Shown here: positions 1 to 25,308 of the stretch, in pieces
Layout: each line of letters opens with the position of its first letter
Position numbering within the stretch: the first letter of the stretch is position 1
Sequence record: OQ850288
Source: Escherichia phage vB_EcoM_ULIM9
DNA length: 64,000 bases
Direction: 5' to 3' (one strand)
Notes under the pieces: generated by a model
Databases searched by the model: none
What the model saw: only the letters and a program-made list of their open reading frames with translations
What the model was told of the DNA's origin: nothing
Position numbers and translations under genes: made by a program

Positions 1-3
1 CAT

Positions 4-92
4 TTTCAGAATCTCCAGTTTAGGACTTTATTTAGTGGGGAAGGTCATTCCCTCCCCGTTGATGTGTAATTTAATCTATCTAAAAACCAGTG
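4..92 (-). repeat. intergenic cassette copy F (GC hairpin plus RBS-proximal motif), upstream of a minus-strand gene starting at position 3
   Basis: cat at 1-3 followed by tttcagaatctccagtttagg, matching the cattttagaatctcctagtttaagg motif of the other cassettes; GGGGAAGG..CCCTCCCC imperfect hairpin. Confidence 0.45.
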
Positions 93-425
93 TCAACAGT
101 TTTGTTTTCGTTTGCTCAATTCTTGAACAATTACAACGTAGTAGTCTTTTAAGTCACTGACATTTAAAGCATTTATCAGAGAATTATAATCATCAACTAA
201 CTGAAAATTATCTTTGAAGATGTCACTTATCTGATAGGTTTTCGCTTTATATCTGAAGCTCATCTCTAGCCGCTTTATTTGCTCATCACTTAAACGCCCT
301 AGAAAGCTTTCTACAAGGCTATTGCTAACCTGCTGGGTGGTTGCCTTATTTGCTAGATTATAGGCTTTATATGCCTTATATAGAGCGAAAATGGCAATGA
401 TTGCAGTGATACCAGTCATTAACAT
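93..425 (-). CDS. hypothetical small membrane protein
   Basis: 110-aa ORF with hydrophobic N-terminus (ITAIIAIFALY); overlaps the 3' end of ORF 419..715 by 7 nt. Confidence 0.4.
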   Translation of the reverse strand: MLMTGITAIIAIFALYKAYKAYNLANKATTQQVSNSLVESFLGRLSDEQIKRLEMSFRYKAKTYQISDIFKDNFQLVDDYNSLINALNVSDLKDYYVVIVQELSKRKQNC

Positions 426-715
426 GGTGTTTCCTCTTTACGTGATACTTTGCCATTTACAGTTATCTCATAGGATTCTAATAAATCGCTTTTAGATTTT
501 ACAGGACTTTTAAAAGTATCATCATAAATATTGACTTGCAATACAGGTTTTTTATACTCCCTGCAACTGTTCCATAAGCAAATCACTACACGACGGCCTT
601 TGATTTTTCCGTGTAACCATTCCATAACATCATGACTATTCCTTGATGTTTCAATGAAATCAATTTTATTAAGTAACTTGCTTAAATTTTCACGGACTTT
701 ATTTGATAATTTCAT
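419..715 (-). CDS. hypothetical protein
   Basis: 98-aa ORF; AGGAGA RBS about 8 nt upstream of ATG inside cassette A. Confidence 0.45.
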   Translation of the reverse strand: MKLSNKVRENLSKLLNKIDFIETSRNSHDVMEWLHGKIKGRRVVICLWNSCREYKKPVLQVNIYDDTFKSPVKSKSDLLESYEITVNGKVSRKEETPC

Positions 716-807
716 TTTAGAATCTCCTAGTTTAAGGGCTTTATTTGATAAATCTCTTTATCTGGGGCTATCCTACCAGCTTGATAACCCCGTGTAAAGG
801 AATCTAT
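716..807 (-). repeat. intergenic cassette copy A
   Basis: ttagaatctcctagtttaagg...tctttatctggggct...cccc: same architecture as copies B-D. Confidence 0.5.
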
Positions 808-1320
808 TTAGTTCTTAAAGATATTCATCACTGAGTCTTTCAACGATTCCAAACGTTCTAATACTTCAGATTCTGCGTCTGCGTTGTTCACCTCTTCTTT
901 TAGTCTATCCTCTAAATCATCGCCGTCACTGTAGCACCAATCGAAAGCGTAACCAATATAAAAACTTTCTAAAACAGTGCTGCCATTTGCATCTACAACT
1001 TTCGCGGCAATGTTATATTCTGAAGCCTCTAAATCTCTTTCTAGTTCTTTCTGTAAGCTGATGTAAGCCTCTTTTGATGGATTTGCCCGGCCTTGTTTTG
1101 CATAGTCACTTGAAAGCTGTTTAAGGCTGTAATGTAAAGGGATTGCATATTTAAATTCATTACGCTGATAGTTAGGATTTTTAATCGTCACACCGCCTTG
1201 ATGGTCATCTGTAAATTTCCAATTATCAAGATTATGGCTTGCTTCAAAGCAATTAATAGCTTCATAAATAATGGTGAATTTTTCTTTTACAACTTCAAAG
1301 GTAGCGTCTACAGTTTTCAT
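808..1320 (-). CDS. hypothetical protein
   Basis: 170-aa ORF, acidic C-terminal half; preceded by cassette B with AGGAGA RBS. Confidence 0.5.
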   Translation of the reverse strand: MKTVDATFEVVKEKFTIIYEAINCFEASHNLDNWKFTDDHQGGVTIKNPNYQRNEFKYAIPLHYSLKQLSSDYAKQGRANPSKEAYISLQKELERDLEASEYNIAAKVVDANGSTVLESFYIGYAFDWCYSDGDDLEDRLKEEVNNADAESEVLERLESLKDSVMNIFKN

Positions 1321-1414
1321 TTTTGAATCTCCTAGTTTAAGGATTGAGTGGTAAAGCTCTTTATCTGGGGCTTAAGATATCAGCTTTTAAGCCCCATGTA
1401 AAGTACTTTATCAG
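1321..1414 (-). repeat. intergenic cassette copy B: palindrome TAAAGCTCTTTA (1352-1363), hairpin GGGGCTTAA..TTAAGCCCC (1367-1395), palindrome TAAAGTACTTTA (1399-1410)
   Basis: read directly; the perfect 12-bp palindrome abuts the stop of the preceding minus-strand gene. Confidence 0.6.
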
Positions 1415-1668
1415 ATTAAATTGCCAGTTAATGATAAGTGCATTTTATAGCCTTTTTTGGTAAACACGTTCACTTTACCGAGTGATTTTACACCTTTAAA
1501 AAGATTGTTTGAACTGCGTTTTAAGATTAGTTGTTTATCAGCCTTCACGCCCCATCTTACAGCAGATTGTTTTCCGTTGTCAACAACTTTTCCGCCTAAC
1601 TTTTTCGCCATGATGCGAGCGTCATCGCGAGTTTTTGCAGTAATTACAACGTTTTTGATAATAGCCAT
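1411..1668 (-). CDS. hypothetical small basic protein
   Basis: 85-aa ORF, Lys/Arg-rich; cassette upstream. Confidence 0.45.
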   Translation of the reverse strand: MAIIKNVVITAKTRDDARIMAKKLGGKVVDNGKQSAVRWGVKADKQLILKRSSNNLFKGVKSLGKVNVFTKKGYKMHLSLTGNLI

Positions 1669-1756
1669 TTTAGAATCTCCAATTTAGGATTGAGTGGTAA
1701 AGCTCTTTATCTGGGGCTTACTTTATCGAACTATAAGCCCCTTGTAAAGTACTTTA
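1669..1756 (-). repeat. intergenic cassette copy C: hairpin GGGGCTTA..TAAGCCCC (1713-1741), palindrome TAAAGTACTTTA (1745-1756)
   Basis: read directly; near-identical to copy B. Confidence 0.6.
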
Positions 1757-2137
1757 TCAGTTAATTTTGAAAATTGTCACATAACCATCACTACCGATTA
1801 TTTGAGACGCTCCAGCTTTCTCCACTGAATAGCCCATATTTTCAAGATGGTAAACAGCATCATCATAACCATATGCGCCACCTTGATAACGTCTCTTATC
1901 GCATCTTATCAGGTTTTTACCACGTCCAGCAAGCGCATTCAGTACGGCTTTTTCACTTGAAAGCGCACCATCTAACATGGTTGCCGTGTAATGGTTGATT
2001 CTGTTCCCGTTAATGTCATACTTAAAATTGAATGCGTGAACAACAATAATCTGACCTGTAAAATTCTCATCAAGTGATTTTTCCAGTGCGTTGCGGAAGT
2101 TGTCTTTATTGATGAATTTAGGTGCACGATATGCCAT
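1757..2137 (-). CDS. hypothetical protein
   Basis: 126-aa ORF; cassette D upstream with RBS. Confidence 0.5.
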   Translation of the reverse strand: MAYRAPKFINKDNFRNALEKSLDENFTGQIIVVHAFNFKYDINGNRINHYTATMLDGALSSEKAVLNALAGRGKNLIRCDKRRYQGGAYGYDDAVYHLENMGYSVEKAGASQIIGSDGYVTIFKIN

Positions 2138-2225
2138 TTTTGAATCTCCTAGTTTAAGGTTGTTGATAAAGCTCTTTATCTGGGGCTTAAGATATCAACT
2201 TTTAAACCCCTTGTAAAGTACTTTA
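2138..2225 (-). repeat. intergenic cassette copy D
   Basis: ttttgaatctcctagtttaagg...taaagctctttatctggggcttaagatatcaacttttaaacccc ttgtaaagtactttat. Confidence 0.55.
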
Positions 2226-2432
2226 TTAGATATCGTAGTAATAAACTGCTGTCTGTCTCGTAAATTTTTTAGTATTCCTTGTAAGATAACAATCAGAGTT
2301 GATTGCCGTTTCTACATAGTTGCAATAATCAGCTTCTGATATTCTAGACCATACGCCACAAATTTGCATGTAAAAACGTTTTACATTTGTGTTAACGTTA
2401 GTTGTAACCATCAATTCACGACCGTATAGCAT
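2226..2432 (-). CDS. hypothetical small protein
   Basis: 68-aa ORF; RBS-proximal cassette motif (tagattctcctagtttaagg) upstream. Confidence 0.4.
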   Translation of the reverse strand: MLYGRELMVTTNVNTNVKRFYMQICGVWSRISEADYCNYVETAINSDCYLTRNTKKFTRQTAVYYYDI

Positions 2433-2470
2433 TTTTAGATTCTCCTAGTTTAAGGCTATTGGGCTTGTCG

Positions 2471-2942
2471 CCCCGTCTGATGCAAATACTATAAAAACCC
2501 GTTCGAGGAGTCAATAAAAATTTTAAAAATATTTTTGGCAAAAATGTAATGAAACGGGCGCACGCGACTACCACAAAACAGAACTACAATCAAGAATTAT
2601 TTTTCAATCCGCTACAAATTTTTCTGTTGACTTCTCTTTTCAGATGTGGTAGCCTTGTGAGAAATGGCGACATCCCCACCTACACCCACCTACCTGCACA
2701 ATTCTAAAATGATTTTTCTTGCCCGACCTGAGCGGGGTCTGCACGTTTTGAAAATGAAAAAGCTCTTTGGAGATTACCTGCACAGTTTGAAAATGAATTT
2801 TCTCTTTGGAGTTCAAAATTCTCTCTACAGATTTCTGTCCAGAACACTACCTGCACAATCCTGAAATAAAAAAGCCCTCCTTACCTGAAAAATTTACCAG
2901 ATAAGAAAGGCTTAGTCTATTGTGAATATTCTACAGAGTTTC
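2471..2942. repeat. about 470-bp non-coding region with four iteron-like direct repeats (consensus TACCTGCACA-N-TGAAAATGA) at about 2690, 2738, 2777 and 2850
   Basis: direct reading; the only track ORF here (2664..2864, plus strand) is low-complexity and built from the repeats. Confidence 0.5.
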
Positions 2943-3728
2943 TTAGTTCTTTGCGTCTAAGAAGGTAACTCCCGGTGAAGAGAAAATTTCCTCAACATCC
3001 TCATCAGTTCTTGCATAGATATACGTATCTGCATCACTGCCAAATGTTACTGCAATCTTGTGATTGCTCTTCGACAGGTGGGTAACTAGAGCGTTACTTA
3101 GAGACATCTTTTCAACCGGAGGGTTACTTTGATGTATCTTGCCTTTTCTTCGTCTGAAGAGGGTAACTGCATCATTAGTGAATACTACTACACCTGAAAA
3201 GTATTCTGGTTCACAGTAGTTCTTCCAACCTGAGCGTAACTTGTGGTACATCTCTCCTTCATAGACATACAGATACACATCTACACTCTTCATCACCTGA
3301 TTAATGATGACTGTGACGGCTTGAGAGTCTAGTCCACCGATACCTGCACCAATCATAGGTAACCCAACTTTCTTCAACTGATTGACTTCACAGTATCTGT
3401 TAAGCTGTTTCAAAGATGACTCTAAAGCACTGTATCGGGCATCTTTACCAGTCTTAAGCTGAGTGTAAAGGTTAGCTATACGGCCTTGTTCTAAACGTGC
3501 TACAGAGAAATTGCCTAGTAAATTTTCACAGGGTTTGTGGCCTATACCACCTGCATACAGATAGACTTCTGTATCAGTCTCATATGCTTTTGGGTAAAGT
3601 TTAGAAATCTTGTCAGCGATACCTGCACCCATTAAATTCATACAGTTGCAACCGTGACCAATGATATCAAACTTACCTTTATCAAATGCGGAGAAGATGT
3701 CCCCATTGATGATTTTTACAATACCCAT
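2943..3728 (-). CDS. macro-domain protein (OARD1/TARG1-like ADP-ribose processing) with an extra C-terminal domain
   Basis: N-terminal NGDIF...DIIGHGCNCMNLMGAGIA and later GLPMIGAGIGGLD match the CxxxC-MGAGIA and glycine-rich loops of Poa1p/OARD1-type macro domains, as recalled. Confidence 0.6.
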   Translation of the reverse strand: MGIVKIINGDIFSAFDKGKFDIIGHGCNCMNLMGAGIADKISKLYPKAYETDTEVYLYAGGIGHKPCENLLGNFSVARLEQGRIANLYTQLKTGKDARYSALESSLKQLNRYCEVNQLKKVGLPMIGAGIGGLDSQAVTVIINQVMKSVDVYLYVYEGEMYHKLRSGWKNYCEPEYFSGVVVFTNDAVTLFRRRKGKIHQSNPPVEKMSLSNALVTHLSKSNHKIAVTFGSDADTYIYARTDEDVEEIFSSPGVTFLDAKN

Positions 3729-5287: not shown

Positions 5288-5752
5288 TTAACTGAGGACT
5301 TTAGCAAGGATATTCGCAGCCATCGAAGAAGCTTTTGCAGCAGCAACTACGCCAGCTTTGACAGTGCCATCCTTAATAGCAGATACCGTTGCAGCATCAG
5401 TAAAGAGGTAAGTGATTGTTTTAGAACCACTTGTAAAGGAAAGCATAAGAGTAGTTTCCAGATTGAAAGAGCGATACGGAGCACCTTCTTTAACGATACC
5501 TTCAGCACCTAACTCTGAAGCCTTACCCATATCATAAATAGTCATCAGGTTTTCTTTGTGTGCAGTCGTTGAACCAGCACCTTTTACGTGCTTTTTAACA
5601 TTCAACAATGCACGATATTCACGAATGCTGCCATCAGCTTTTACATTGACAGCACGAAAAATTTTACCTTCAAAGTTACCTTGAATCAATTTACGAACTA
5701 CTACAGATTTGTTTGTCGTATCGTCCAGTGCTACCGTAATGATATTGTTCAT
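5288..5752 (-). CDS. hypothetical protein
   Basis: 154-aa ORF, Ala/Gly/Thr-rich, terminator downstream. Confidence 0.45.
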   Translation of the reverse strand: MNNIITVALDDTTNKSVVVRKLIQGNFEGKIFRAVNVKADGSIREYRALLNVKKHVKGAGSTTAHKENLMTIYDMGKASELGAEGIVKEGAPYRSFNLETTLMLSFTSGSKTITYLFTDAATVSAIKDGTVKAGVVAAAKASSMAANILAKVLS

Positions 5753-5762
5753 AAGTTTTCTC

Positions 5763-6458
5763 TCAATGTTTAACTAACATGGTTTTAATGTGTGGAAGGA
5801 TTCTGTTTACCTTCTGAACATTCTTCTCTGTATCTTCTATAAAGCATACTATATTAAAGTAAGGAAGAATGCAAGACTGAATCATCCTAACTTTTAAACT
5901 TTCTGCACTTATAGAGTTAGTTCCAAAACCACGCATGAAAAGCATGTAATCATGCTCTATGTAATGCCTTAAAAACATCTCAGTAGGTACTCTCTGAGAT
6001 TCACCCCTCGCTGTCAAGAGTCCAATAGTAGCATGATTAGAGATTGCGTCAATAATATTGAAAACATACGTTGGTTTTGCACTTACAGAGTCAAGCAAAT
6101 TAGTGTACTGTGAAAATGACCCATCAATCAATTCTGTTGAGTAATCTTCGTGATTAAAATTTGTAAGAACACCATCAATGTCTGCTAAGATAAGGTTACC
6201 TTTTTCTACAAGGTCTTTATTGACTATGACTAAACTGTCACGTCTTACACCTATAGACTGTCCAGTCTCTTTGTCCACAACGTTCACAATTGTTTCTGAC
6301 GTGTGGAACTCTTCAAGTGAACATACAACTTCTCTTGCAGTATCTTCAAAATCCCTGCACTGCTCTGTAGTCCATACACAGGAATCAAGACCTAACTCAT
6401 GAGGGTGCAAGTCGTAAGCATGGCACAGGACTTCATCAGACTTTCTTAATTTTTTCAT
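5763..6458 (-). CDS. HAD-superfamily hydrolase (putative nucleotidase/phosphatase)
   Basis: motif I LILADIDGVLTN (DxDGV), LLTARG (motif II-like) and FIEDTEKN (motif IV-like). Confidence 0.45.
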   Translation of the reverse strand: MKKLRKSDEVLCHAYDLHPHELGLDSCVWTTEQCRDFEDTAREVVCSLEEFHTSETIVNVVDKETGQSIGVRRDSLVIVNKDLVEKGNLILADIDGVLTNFNHEDYSTELIDGSFSQYTNLLDSVSAKPTYVFNIIDAISNHATIGLLTARGESQRVPTEMFLRHYIEHDYMLFMRGFGTNSISAESLKVRMIQSCILPYFNIVCFIEDTEKNVQKVNRILPHIKTMLVKH

Positions 6459-6984: not shown

Positions 6985-7043
6985 TGGTTCTCCTGTTTAG
7001 TTTATCGTGACAACAATTATACAGCACTCTGCACAAAATACAA

Positions 7044-24256: not shown

Positions 24257-24581
24257 GGTATTTCTCCAAGTTTCTTTTTAGATACAACCAACCATAGTCA
24301 GTCCTTTCTACACCCATAAAGAGTGGAGCCATCACAACTTTACCGAAAGTATTCCTGTGTTGGCAGATTTCAAAGGAATACTCTTTCTCAATATCAATCC
24401 CGTATTTGTACAGGACTGCTTTTAAAACTTGTTCATTGTCCAGAAGTGTATCTGGAGTCTCACCATACTTCTCAAGTAACGGGTCATACATAAACACCGT
24501 CATAGAAATATTGTAGTTTGAGAAGTGGCTCTTCTGAGCCACACCCTCTTTATTAATGTTCTGTGAATCCATTATAACCAA
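24249..24581 (-). CDS. hypothetical protein
   Basis: 110-aa ORF. Confidence 0.4.
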   Translation of the reverse strand: MVIMDSQNINKEGVAQKSHFSNYNISMTVFMYDPLLEKYGETPDTLLDNEQVLKAVLYKYGIDIEKEYSFEICQHRNTFGKVVMAPLFMGVERTDYGWLYLKRNLEKYRV

Positions 24582-25308
24582 CCCCTTTTAACCAGCACTT
24601 CAGGTTATTAGCATCATAATTCAGTTTCGGGTATGAGGTTACATGGAACTGCTCACCATCATAATAGACAATATCTGCAATCCATAGTCCATTCTCTTTA
24701 CAGAAGTCTTTATCTGCTTTAGAGGTAATTGGATTAACTTCTACAAAACCATCTACACCCAAATCCTTTAAGCTACCTACAATACCTTTGCAGATAACGC
24801 ATGTCTCAGATACTACCACAAAAAGTTCTTGGCTTTCAAGTTCTACAATGTATTCGCCAAGCTGTACTTTAGGGAGGTTCGATTGCTTCATAACCTTTCC
24901 ATCGGCTGCACGAACAATCGCATACCATTCTTTACCATCAACTACTGACATTCTGATAATACACTCTTGACCAGTGCGCTTTTCAATGTCTGCAAGACGT
25001 TTTAAAGCTTCTTCATAGTCATCTGTGTACTTCAGGTCATTATTATGGCAAACAGCTTTCATAGCACCGTTATGGTCATGCTGTGACAGGTAAATCAAAC
25101 CATCAAGAACATATTGCAAATCTGCCTGAGCATCCAGTGTCTCAATGGGGTCTTTCTCTTCAATTGCTTTTACAAGCTCTTTTGCTTCTTCAAGCATACA
25201 CAGAGACTGGGATTTTAAAGACTCCCAATACTCATCACTGTAAGGTTGCTTTTGAGTGTTTCCACAACGAAGATTCCAGTTTTTTACTGCTTCTCTTGAG
25301 TTAAACAT
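24553..25308 (-). CDS. MazG-like nucleotide pyrophosphohydrolase domain protein (tentative) with C-terminal extension
   Basis: LEEAKELVKAIEEKDPIETLDAQADLQYVLDGL resembles the EExxE...D..D helical core of MazG-type NTP-PPases. Confidence 0.35.
   Translation of the reverse strand: MFNSREAVKNWNLRCGNTQKQPYSDEYWESLKSQSLCMLEEAKELVKAIEEKDPIETLDAQADLQYVLDGLIYLSQHDHNGAMKAVCHNNDLKYTDDYEEALKRLADIEKRTGQECIIRMSVVDGKEWYAIVRAADGKVMKQSNLPKVQLGEYIVELESQELFVVVSETCVICKGIVGSLKDLGVDGFVEVNPITSKADKDFCKENGLWIADIVYYDGEQFHVTSYPKLNYDANNLKCWLKGVGYNGFTEH

Follow-up and report, generated by a model that had tools for sequence, protein, structure and literature searches.

A conserved array of four direct repeats ahead of the terminal early genes of Felix O1-like phages, a candidate protein-binding control region

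What does a phage keep in some 500 bp of DNA that hold no gene? The question is raised by a non-coding gap in a 64,000-nt stretch (the window) of Escherichia phage vB_EcoM_ULIM9 (OQ850288). A first-pass annotation, made from the letters alone, had called this gap the largest in the window, had noticed iteron-like direct repeats in it and had proposed a replication origin, a packaging or terminal-repeat boundary, or a small non-coding RNA locus. That annotation gave the gap about 470 bp without a credible open reading frame (ORF); no credible gene was found there, but the true extent is 510 bp (2433-2942). A 1-kb query around the gap matched 222 phage records, almost all of them Felixounavirus (Ounavirinae), that is, Felix O1-like phages, and the best match was Escherichia phage JN01 (99% identity); the phage genome measures about 88 kb. 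As the surrounding credible genes all lie on the minus strand, which holds every credible gene of the window’s first 33 kb, the region is described here in the sense (minus-strand) direction. Read this way, it runs from an intrinsic terminator through four bipartite repeats, a 61-nt spacer, an invariant block with back-to-back -35 boxes, and an A/T tract with an early promoter (P1) to a 5’ untranslated region (UTR) that forms hairpins. Our first choice among the possible explanations, held tentatively, is that the gap is a cis-acting control region heading a terminal cluster of small early (host-takeover-type) genes, in which the repeats would form a protein-binding array, most plausibly one that gates transcription.

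The repeat array and its conservation

The first-pass annotation was right that the gap contains four irregularly spaced direct repeats, but the consensus it gave, TACCTGCACA(A/G)TTYTGAAAATGA, is one base too long and has no match even when three mismatches are allowed. The corrected repeat, CTGCACRNTTYKAAAATGA, is 19 nt long and reads CTGCAC-N6-RAAATGA on the plus strand or TCATTTY-N6-GTGCAG(GTA) on the sense strand. A search of the 64 kb with this motif gave seven matches against 0.76 expected, four of them inside 176 bp: three copies without mismatches (at 2694, 2739 and 2778) and one with three mismatches (at 2851). In sense order, on the minus strand, these are repeat A (TTATTTCAGGATTGTGCAG, 2851-2869), which overlaps the T-tract of the terminator, reads TCATTTC... 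in most relatives and holds the same position in all lineages aligned; repeat B (TCATTTTCAAACTGTGCAG, 2778-2796), preceded by the box ACTCCAAAGAG and an A/T run; repeat C (TCATTTTCAAAACGTGCAG, 2739-2757), preceded by the box TCTCCAAAGAG and a T-run; and repeat D (TCATTTTAGAATTGTGCAG, 2694-2712), preceded by GTCGGGCAAG and an A-run. The spacings from A to B, B to C and C to D are 73, 39 and 45 nt, and each 19-bp site sits in a unit of about 38 nt that carries an A- or T-run. The four copies are the only such cluster in the window and in the 24.6 kb of JN01 that lie outside it, a search of both giving no further copy apart from a single one-mismatch site at 7029, and no second homologous locus was found elsewhere in the genome.

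For comparison, 27 related loci were gathered via the protein of the adjoining macro-domain gene, and further loci by DNA search. An array of four copies directly follows the macro-domain gene, in the same order and orientation, in Felixounavirus, Suspvirus, Mooglevirus and Kolesnikvirus and in a distant 88-kb contig (L057). The spacings are 73/39/45 in Felixounavirus and Suspvirus, 75/41/45 or 77/39/45 in Mooglevirus, 37/37/39 in Kolesnikvirus (phiEa21-4 and SPARTY), where the core is TCATTTT-N6-GTGCATAG, and 36/148/38 in contig L057, while Si3-like phages have three copies, the unit of repeat B being missing. Across genera, the nucleotide identity of the non-coding core is 71-77%, against 70-75% and 67-70% for the flanking genes, and the flanking protein is just 64-69% identical in Suspvirus and Mooglevirus. 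The first-pass annotation had allowed that related genomes might reveal a degraded gene with unconserved repeats; the comparison clearly shows the opposite, the repeats being the most conserved feature of the region.

Scans of wider databases gave a consistent picture. Two adjacent units were sought in the 2.9 million viral contigs of IMG/VR, which returned 31 loci, 30 of them on contigs with lengths of 51-94 kb, in most cases near 88 kb; 27 of these 30 contigs had also supplied loci already recognised as relatives, and the remaining 31st locus is a chance tandem duplication. Among 185,579 bacterial genomes (one per species), the scan found unrelated tandem repeats only, and none in Enterobacterales. 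Together, conservation and scans mark the array as a hallmark of the phage subfamily. A 35-nt tandem repeat in an uncultured proteobacterium (L074, 6074-6126, minus strand), beside a small GIY-YIG-like ORF, contains TTCATTTT-N6-GTGCAGACC in the manner of repeat C and was judged a chance likeness.

Across 62 distinct unit sequences from five lineages, the core T(C)ATTT...GTGCA is essentially invariant and AAAU is present in every unit, while the 6-nt centre between the half-sites varies freely in sequence and never in length. Invariant half-sites around a variable centre of fixed length are typical of protein-DNA recognition, and the best reading of the array is an iteron-like series of predicted sites for a sequence-specific DNA-binding protein. 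None of the sites known to us for sigma-54, MarA/SoxS, NtrC, IHF, Fis, ArgR, Fur or PhoB fits all four copies. The gap also has the highest A/T-tract density of the window (20 per 441 nt, compared with a mean of 5.4). The repeat units were considered as sigma-70 promoters and rejected, as only two units qualify, only in phiEa21-4, and the promoter scan was negative for them in the window. In the phiEa21-4 array (L039 1525-1590, plus strand), two units form good promoter sequences, TTGCCA-17-TAAAAT (10/12) and TTGCCA-17-GAAAAT (9/12), neither of which is conserved in the window phage.

Signals at the edges of the gap and the spacing between them

Ordinary signals explain about 170 of the 510 bp, and not the repeats: an intrinsic terminator takes up some 80 bp at the right end, and early promoter and 5’ UTR take up some 90 bp at the left. 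The terminator (2862-2913, minus strand) ends the operon of the spanin and macro-domain genes and consists of a 17-pair stem (2913-2872) followed by a T-tract, TTTTTTATTT, that runs into repeat A. Its fold in minus-strand RNA has -24.5 kcal/mol (z -6.35), against only -10.5 kcal/mol on the plus strand, where a U-tract is missing as well. Across genera, the consensus fold shows the same strand specificity (z -4.0 versus -0.8), with G-U pairs kept, and the terminator is annotated as such in the records of Tribble, KhF1, Barry and ASO1A. Promoter P1, recovered by the promoter scan, occupies 2486-2540 on the minus strand together with its upstream A/T tract; a -35 box TTGACT (2514-2509) and a -10 box TAGTAT (2491-2486) are separated by a 17-nt spacer, both boxes fall in invariant alignment columns, and a promoter is annotated here in ASO1A. 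The preceding tract, AAAAATATTTTTAAAA (~2512-2540), is also invariant and could be an UP element or an unwinding region. With a G+C-rich sense-strand hairpin and U-tract, followed by -35 and -10 boxes spaced 17 nt apart, the gap has the make-up of an ordinary operon boundary, and its terminator and P1 are solid.

Transcription from P1 would start at about 2478-2481, giving the first early gene a 5’ UTR (2433-2481, minus strand) with a hairpin at 2473-2461 and the Shine-Dalgarno sequence TAGGAGA. Relatives keep this 5’-proximal hairpin with differing sequences (GGGC/GCCC, GGGGAGGG/CCTTCCCC and GGGA/TCCC). In a second small hairpin, the GGAG of the Shine-Dalgarno sequence is paired with CCT or TCC. 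The hairpins are likely to serve mRNA stabilisation and translational tuning.

Between the array and P1 lie a spacer cassette and an invariant block. The cassette extends over 61 nt (2633-2693) from repeat D to the block and is fixed in length but replaceable in sequence: it occurs in two unrelated forms, both exactly 61 nt long, one G-rich on the minus strand (as in the window phage) and one C-rich on that strand. As both forms occur within Felixounavirus, exchange of the cassette by recombination in its conserved flanks is suggested. The CACCTAC duplication listed in the first-pass annotation is present (2677-2683 and 2687-2693), but lies in this hypervariable cassette and is not conserved. 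The GC-rich element GGGCGCACGCGAC from the same list is also there (2556-2568), though only semi-conserved between lineages; it overlaps a weak minus-strand -10 candidate, extends a little beyond it on the downstream side, and is given no function of its own here. The plus strand of the C-rich cassette form shows four or five GGGG runs, a G-quadruplex-like pattern.

The invariant block (2588-2632) has the same sequence across genera and contains two -35-like hexamers that stand back to back, 33 bp apart (39 bp from start to start). On the plus strand, TTGACT (2627-2632) is followed after a 17-nt spacer by TAGCCT (2650-2655) with a TGn extension, a -10 that in most lineages is a poor TAAGAG; on the minus strand, TTGATT (2593-2588) is followed after 17 nt by a poor -10, TAGTCG (2570-2565). 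Neither candidate passes the promoter scan of the window. In phiEa21-4, both members of the equivalent divergent pair score 10/12 (plus strand, TTGACG-18-TATACT; minus strand, TTGACT-17-TATATT). The block may hold two promoters placed back to back.

The distance from the terminator to the start of P1 is 399-409 nt in every lineage in which it is measurable, and 408-409 nt in most. In Mooglevirus, for example, 4 nt gained within the array are offset by 4 nt lost from the cassette, which leaves repeat A 237 nt from the block; in one phage (L013), a 10-nt deletion in the cassette equals one helical turn. That the length of the cassette is kept while its sequence is not points to a constraint at the level of the DNA.

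Could the region nevertheless encode a small repeat-containing protein? Two ORFs come into question, a 66-amino-acid ATG ORF on the plus strand (2664-2864) and a 58-amino-acid TTG ORF on the minus strand (2640-2816). The distances from D to C and from C to B are 45 and 39 nt, multiples of three, which puts these repeats in frame in both ORFs, and GenBank annotates hypothetical proteins at this place (Meda_119 and Tribble_125). However, breaks or frame shifts affect the ORFs in wV8, Mooglevirus and others, their start codons lie in the replaceable cassette, and spacings of 41, 75 and 77 in relatives disrupt the frame. Variable columns are distributed over the three codon positions as 12/8/13, compared with 32/16/113 in the macro-domain gene, which served as positive control. 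A protein-coding reading was rejected for both strands, as the ORFs are not conserved and show no third-position excess, and we regard such a protein as very improbable.

Transcription control, replication origin or RNA

Under the control reading, the four repeats would work at the DNA level and bind a sequence-specific protein that is probably phage-encoded and probably a monomer or otherwise asymmetric, contacting two successive major grooves, for which each site has about the right size. On binding, a nucleoprotein complex would form whose distance from the promoter block is fixed, and this complex would gate transcription at the junction of the lysis-gene-ending operon and the terminal early cluster, whether by activating the early promoters, by shutting them off later, or by insulating them from the upstream late operon. 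In support of this, the repeats are non-random, form the sole cluster of their kind in the genome, and keep their number, order, orientation and position in five Ounavirinae lineages. There is some resemblance to the arrays upstream of strong promoters, such as the FIS sites and UP element of rrnB P1: here, too, a strong sigma-70 promoter with a UP-like, A/T-rich tract is preceded by an array in A-tract-rich DNA, and the distance of the array from the promoter block is conserved. In contrast to those arrays, the repeats lie 150-360 bp upstream, and no host-factor site that we know of matches the motif.

Several observations weigh against the control reading. The ten neighbouring ORFs show no DNA-binding domain in Pfam or PHROGs, and no candidate for the binding protein was found among them. 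A distance of 150-360 bp from P1 is far for a classical operator, and spacings of 37-45 bp set successive sites on different faces of the helix. Helical phasing of the A/T tracts is not significant, their 10.5-bp periodicity standing at the 91st percentile. The literature searched held no transcript, binding or replication data for the region, a knockout study of Bas63 offered no readable data on it, and the arguments that separate transcription control from an origin are weak ones. The Felix O1 genome paper lists direct repeats of at least 24 bp only, all at other loci, and describes temporal control and the use of promoters around terminators as not known; for Felix O1 and its relatives, the origin of replication and the timing of transcription are explicitly given as not known (PMC3185647). 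Literature searches likewise returned no description of the array, no Felixounavirus transcriptome and no origin for these phages. The array would belong with the direct-repeat protein-binding arrays of phage control regions, and we found no earlier description of it.

A replication origin is the closest competitor, and the iteron-like anatomy that the first-pass annotation proposed is strongly supported by conservation. The four repeats would then be iterons for a phage initiator, with the promoters and A/T tract providing transcriptional activation and unwinding. The primary origin of T7 combines a promoter with AT-rich DNA, lambda ori has iterons, and Rep monomers with two domains bind bipartite asymmetric iterons, which the site of the present array resembles. 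As in iteron origins, at least three direct repeats of 17-22 bp in the same orientation are clustered once per replicon, and this single-copy, orientation-fixed array of 19-bp repeats is kept across the subfamily with a fixed geometry. The iteron arrays of lambda ori (O-protein sites), P1 oriR and RepA/RepE-type plasmids also comprise three to five direct repeats, each about 19 bp long and all oriented alike, in a single cluster per replicon, with an asymmetric bipartite site and an A/T-rich tract and promoters in the neighbourhood; here, the invariant AAAAATATTTTTAAAA tract and the tandem and divergent promoter candidates are nearby. In Kolesnikvirus and contig L057, the 3’ half-site TGTGCATAG is one or two mismatches from the DnaA box TGTGNAWAA. 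However, the spacing of the present repeats is wide and irregular (37-77 bp, compared with about 20-23 bp in iteron arrays), and no initiator gene adjoins them, the ten neighbouring ORFs lacking any Rep-like or DNA-binding gene in Pfam or PHROGs. The gap of the window phage has no consensus DnaA box (TTWTNCACA); the A/T tract lies about 155 bp from the nearest repeat (D) rather than next to it and may double as the UP region of P1; and the GC skew, which follows gene orientation, has no inflection at the gap. The replication genes are more than 30 kb away. The phage has a primase-helicase plus PolA replisome (PMC4837284), which, if T7-like, would need no iterons. An origin is possible, if rather unlikely, and a regulatory protein-binding array is at least as likely as an origin or iteron array. 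Since an origin here would be one without an initiator-like neighbour, DnaA boxes, a clearly adjacent unwinding element or a skew switch, we have a weak preference for control of early transcription, with the origin a close second.

The third function named in the first-pass annotation, a small non-coding RNA, is more doubtful than either. Transcribed on the plus strand from the TTGACT promoter at 2627-2632, such an RNA would carry the repeats as linear motifs (CUGCAC-N6-AAAUGA) and could act as a protein sponge or decoy, for example as a type III antitoxin mimic, or as an antisense or interference transcript directed at the converging operon. In favour of this option, the -35 box is invariant, the phiEa21-4 promoter is good (10/12), the window phage has an extended -10 (TGn-TAGCCT), and AAAU recurs in every unit. 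The Kolesnikvirus units are near-tandem, and their period of 37-39 nt falls within the size range of type III antitoxin repeats. The arrays of ToxI and phage pseudo-ToxI are similar in their short direct repeats, their period of 37-45 nt and a candidate promoter at one side, but in the present array the units are not near-identical, the bipartite core alone being common to them (only about 13 of 38 nt, unlike processed antitoxin repeats), the spacing is irregular, and no toxin gene is present, the next gene on the plus side being the antisense of the macro-domain gene. Moreover, the -10 is poor in most lineages (TAAGAG), the site in the window fails the promoter scan, and the plus strand lacks a terminator, the hairpin being weak on that strand and followed by no U-tract. 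No RNA fold of the repeat region is conserved, whichever strand is read (z -1.3 and -0.4), covariation across the gap alignment is almost absent outside the terminator, and tRNA and Rfam searches of the gap returned nothing, Rfam being empty even at E<10. Compensating indels that preserve distances are also unexpected for an RNA that works through linear motifs. The conserved -35 box aside, these observations give the RNA option weak support at best, and we consider it unlikely.

Genome ends, DNA entry and neighbouring genes

The gap is not a packaging or terminal-repeat boundary, as the first-pass annotation had suggested it might be, since the terminal repeat has been mapped to a different sequence, about 6.8 kb away. 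For UAB_Phi87, Bal31 digestion combined with run-off sequencing gave a direct terminal repeat of 608 bp (PMC4837284, Fig. S1), and the terminal-repeat sequence of UAB_69 has likewise been published (PMC11350853, Fig. S1). Neither sequence has a match in the window. The Felixounavirus terminal repeat is an unrelated sequence rich in TTAACA/TGTTAA; its homologue in JN01 lies at 24396-24990, about 6.8 kb from the gap, and the annotated ‘short direct terminal repeat region’ of Pr103Blw matches the mapped repeat. Two GenBank records begin or end within the gap, which might indicate a genome terminus, a terminal-repeat edge or a packaging site, but both ends are assembly artefacts. KhF1 (KT184313) opens with a low-quality read containing Ns (L005 1-377) that duplicates its final 377 nt (L006 2128-2500) at 89.7% identity, and EC106 (ON210138; L007 1-45) opens inside the G-run cassette and is missing about 250 bp. 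A terminus in the gap is thus scarcely credible. In the JN01 terminal repeat (L038 4397-4991, equal to JN01 24396-24990), three TTAACA stand at one edge and twelve TGTTAA at the other, as inverted clusters. Contig L057 (reverse strand, ~5600-5800) has eight TTAACA immediately after its four-unit array, and in this lineage the array may be linked to terminal-repeat-like sequence.

The position of the array also invites comparison with phage T5, whose first-step-transfer segment makes up 7.9% of the genome and whose stop signal belongs to an untranslated region of repeats that is conserved (bioRxiv 10.1101/866236). By analogy, the array could mark the inner edge of a terminal segment of about 8% with the early genes and pause genome entry until early proteins are made, an explanation that we consider improbable. 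In a variant that is no more probable, the array, its fixed-length spacer and the inward-facing promoter would form a checkpoint for genome entry or host takeover: the terminal 8.5%, with about 20 small early genes, would be the first part to enter and to be expressed, and a repeat-bound complex would keep the remainder back pending release by an early protein. Between repeat D and the far edge of the terminal repeat lie about 7.6 kb, or about 8.5% of the virion DNA, a share similar to that of T5; every early promoter lies on the terminal side of the array, and the geometry of the region is conserved. As in the T5 injection stop region (repeat region 3 of the left terminal repeat), non-coding repeats stand at the inner edge of a terminal segment of small early genes, and the non-coding part is better conserved than many of the ORFs it borders. 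In contrast, the T5 region comprises 1.2 kb of palindromes, inverted repeats and paired DnaA boxes within a 10-kb terminal repeat, whereas four simple direct repeats are found here, outside a terminal repeat of 0.6 kb. No inverted repeats, palindromes or paired DnaA boxes of the T5 kind were found in the gap, where the terminator is the sole strong inverted repeat. No report was found of two-step DNA injection by any Ounavirinae phage, two-step entry not being known for these phages. In contig L057, moreover, other sequence directly follows the array. Were the checkpoint reading true, staged delivery of DNA would have evolved independently a second time, in a classic phage family.

Felix O1 and its relatives, among them the engineering model Bas63, are classic phages for diagnostics and biocontrol. 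In these phages, an array found throughout the subfamily, and as conserved between genera as the flanking genes, is placed exactly where the late and early transcription units meet, and naming the protein that binds it would probably reveal an early-gene switch, an origin or an entry checkpoint. In practice, annotators should call no ORFs in the gap, assemblies tend to break there, and the gap is unsuitable as a supposedly neutral insertion site for phage engineering.

The gap is bordered upstream by the macro-domain gene (2943-3728, minus strand; 261 amino acids; Pfam Macro, PHROG 335), which is annotated ‘phosphatase’ and is preceded by the spanin genes in the same operon, and downstream by the first small early gene (2226-2432, minus strand; 68 amino acids). 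Beyond the latter extends a row of small ORFs without assigned function, which in JN01 spans about 6.8 kb and stops at the homologue of the direct terminal repeat. The early ORFs at 1-2520 (minus strand) are separated by spacers of about 90 bp, most of which contain a sigma-70-like promoter site (TTTACA-17-TATCTT and similar); among these spacers, the Shine-Dalgarno sequence TAGGAGA was read only at 2138-2225 and 2433-2520. They probably correspond to the 57- and 39-bp intergenic repeats given in the Felix O1 genome paper. Salmonella phages of the BPS15S6 type have an additional 192-nt ORF between P1 and the 68-amino-acid gene (an insertion of about 200 bp; L004 2730-2921), and phages of the wV8/HY02 type lack the 68-amino-acid gene altogether. 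The early cluster is mosaic, whereas the control region upstream of it stays fixed.

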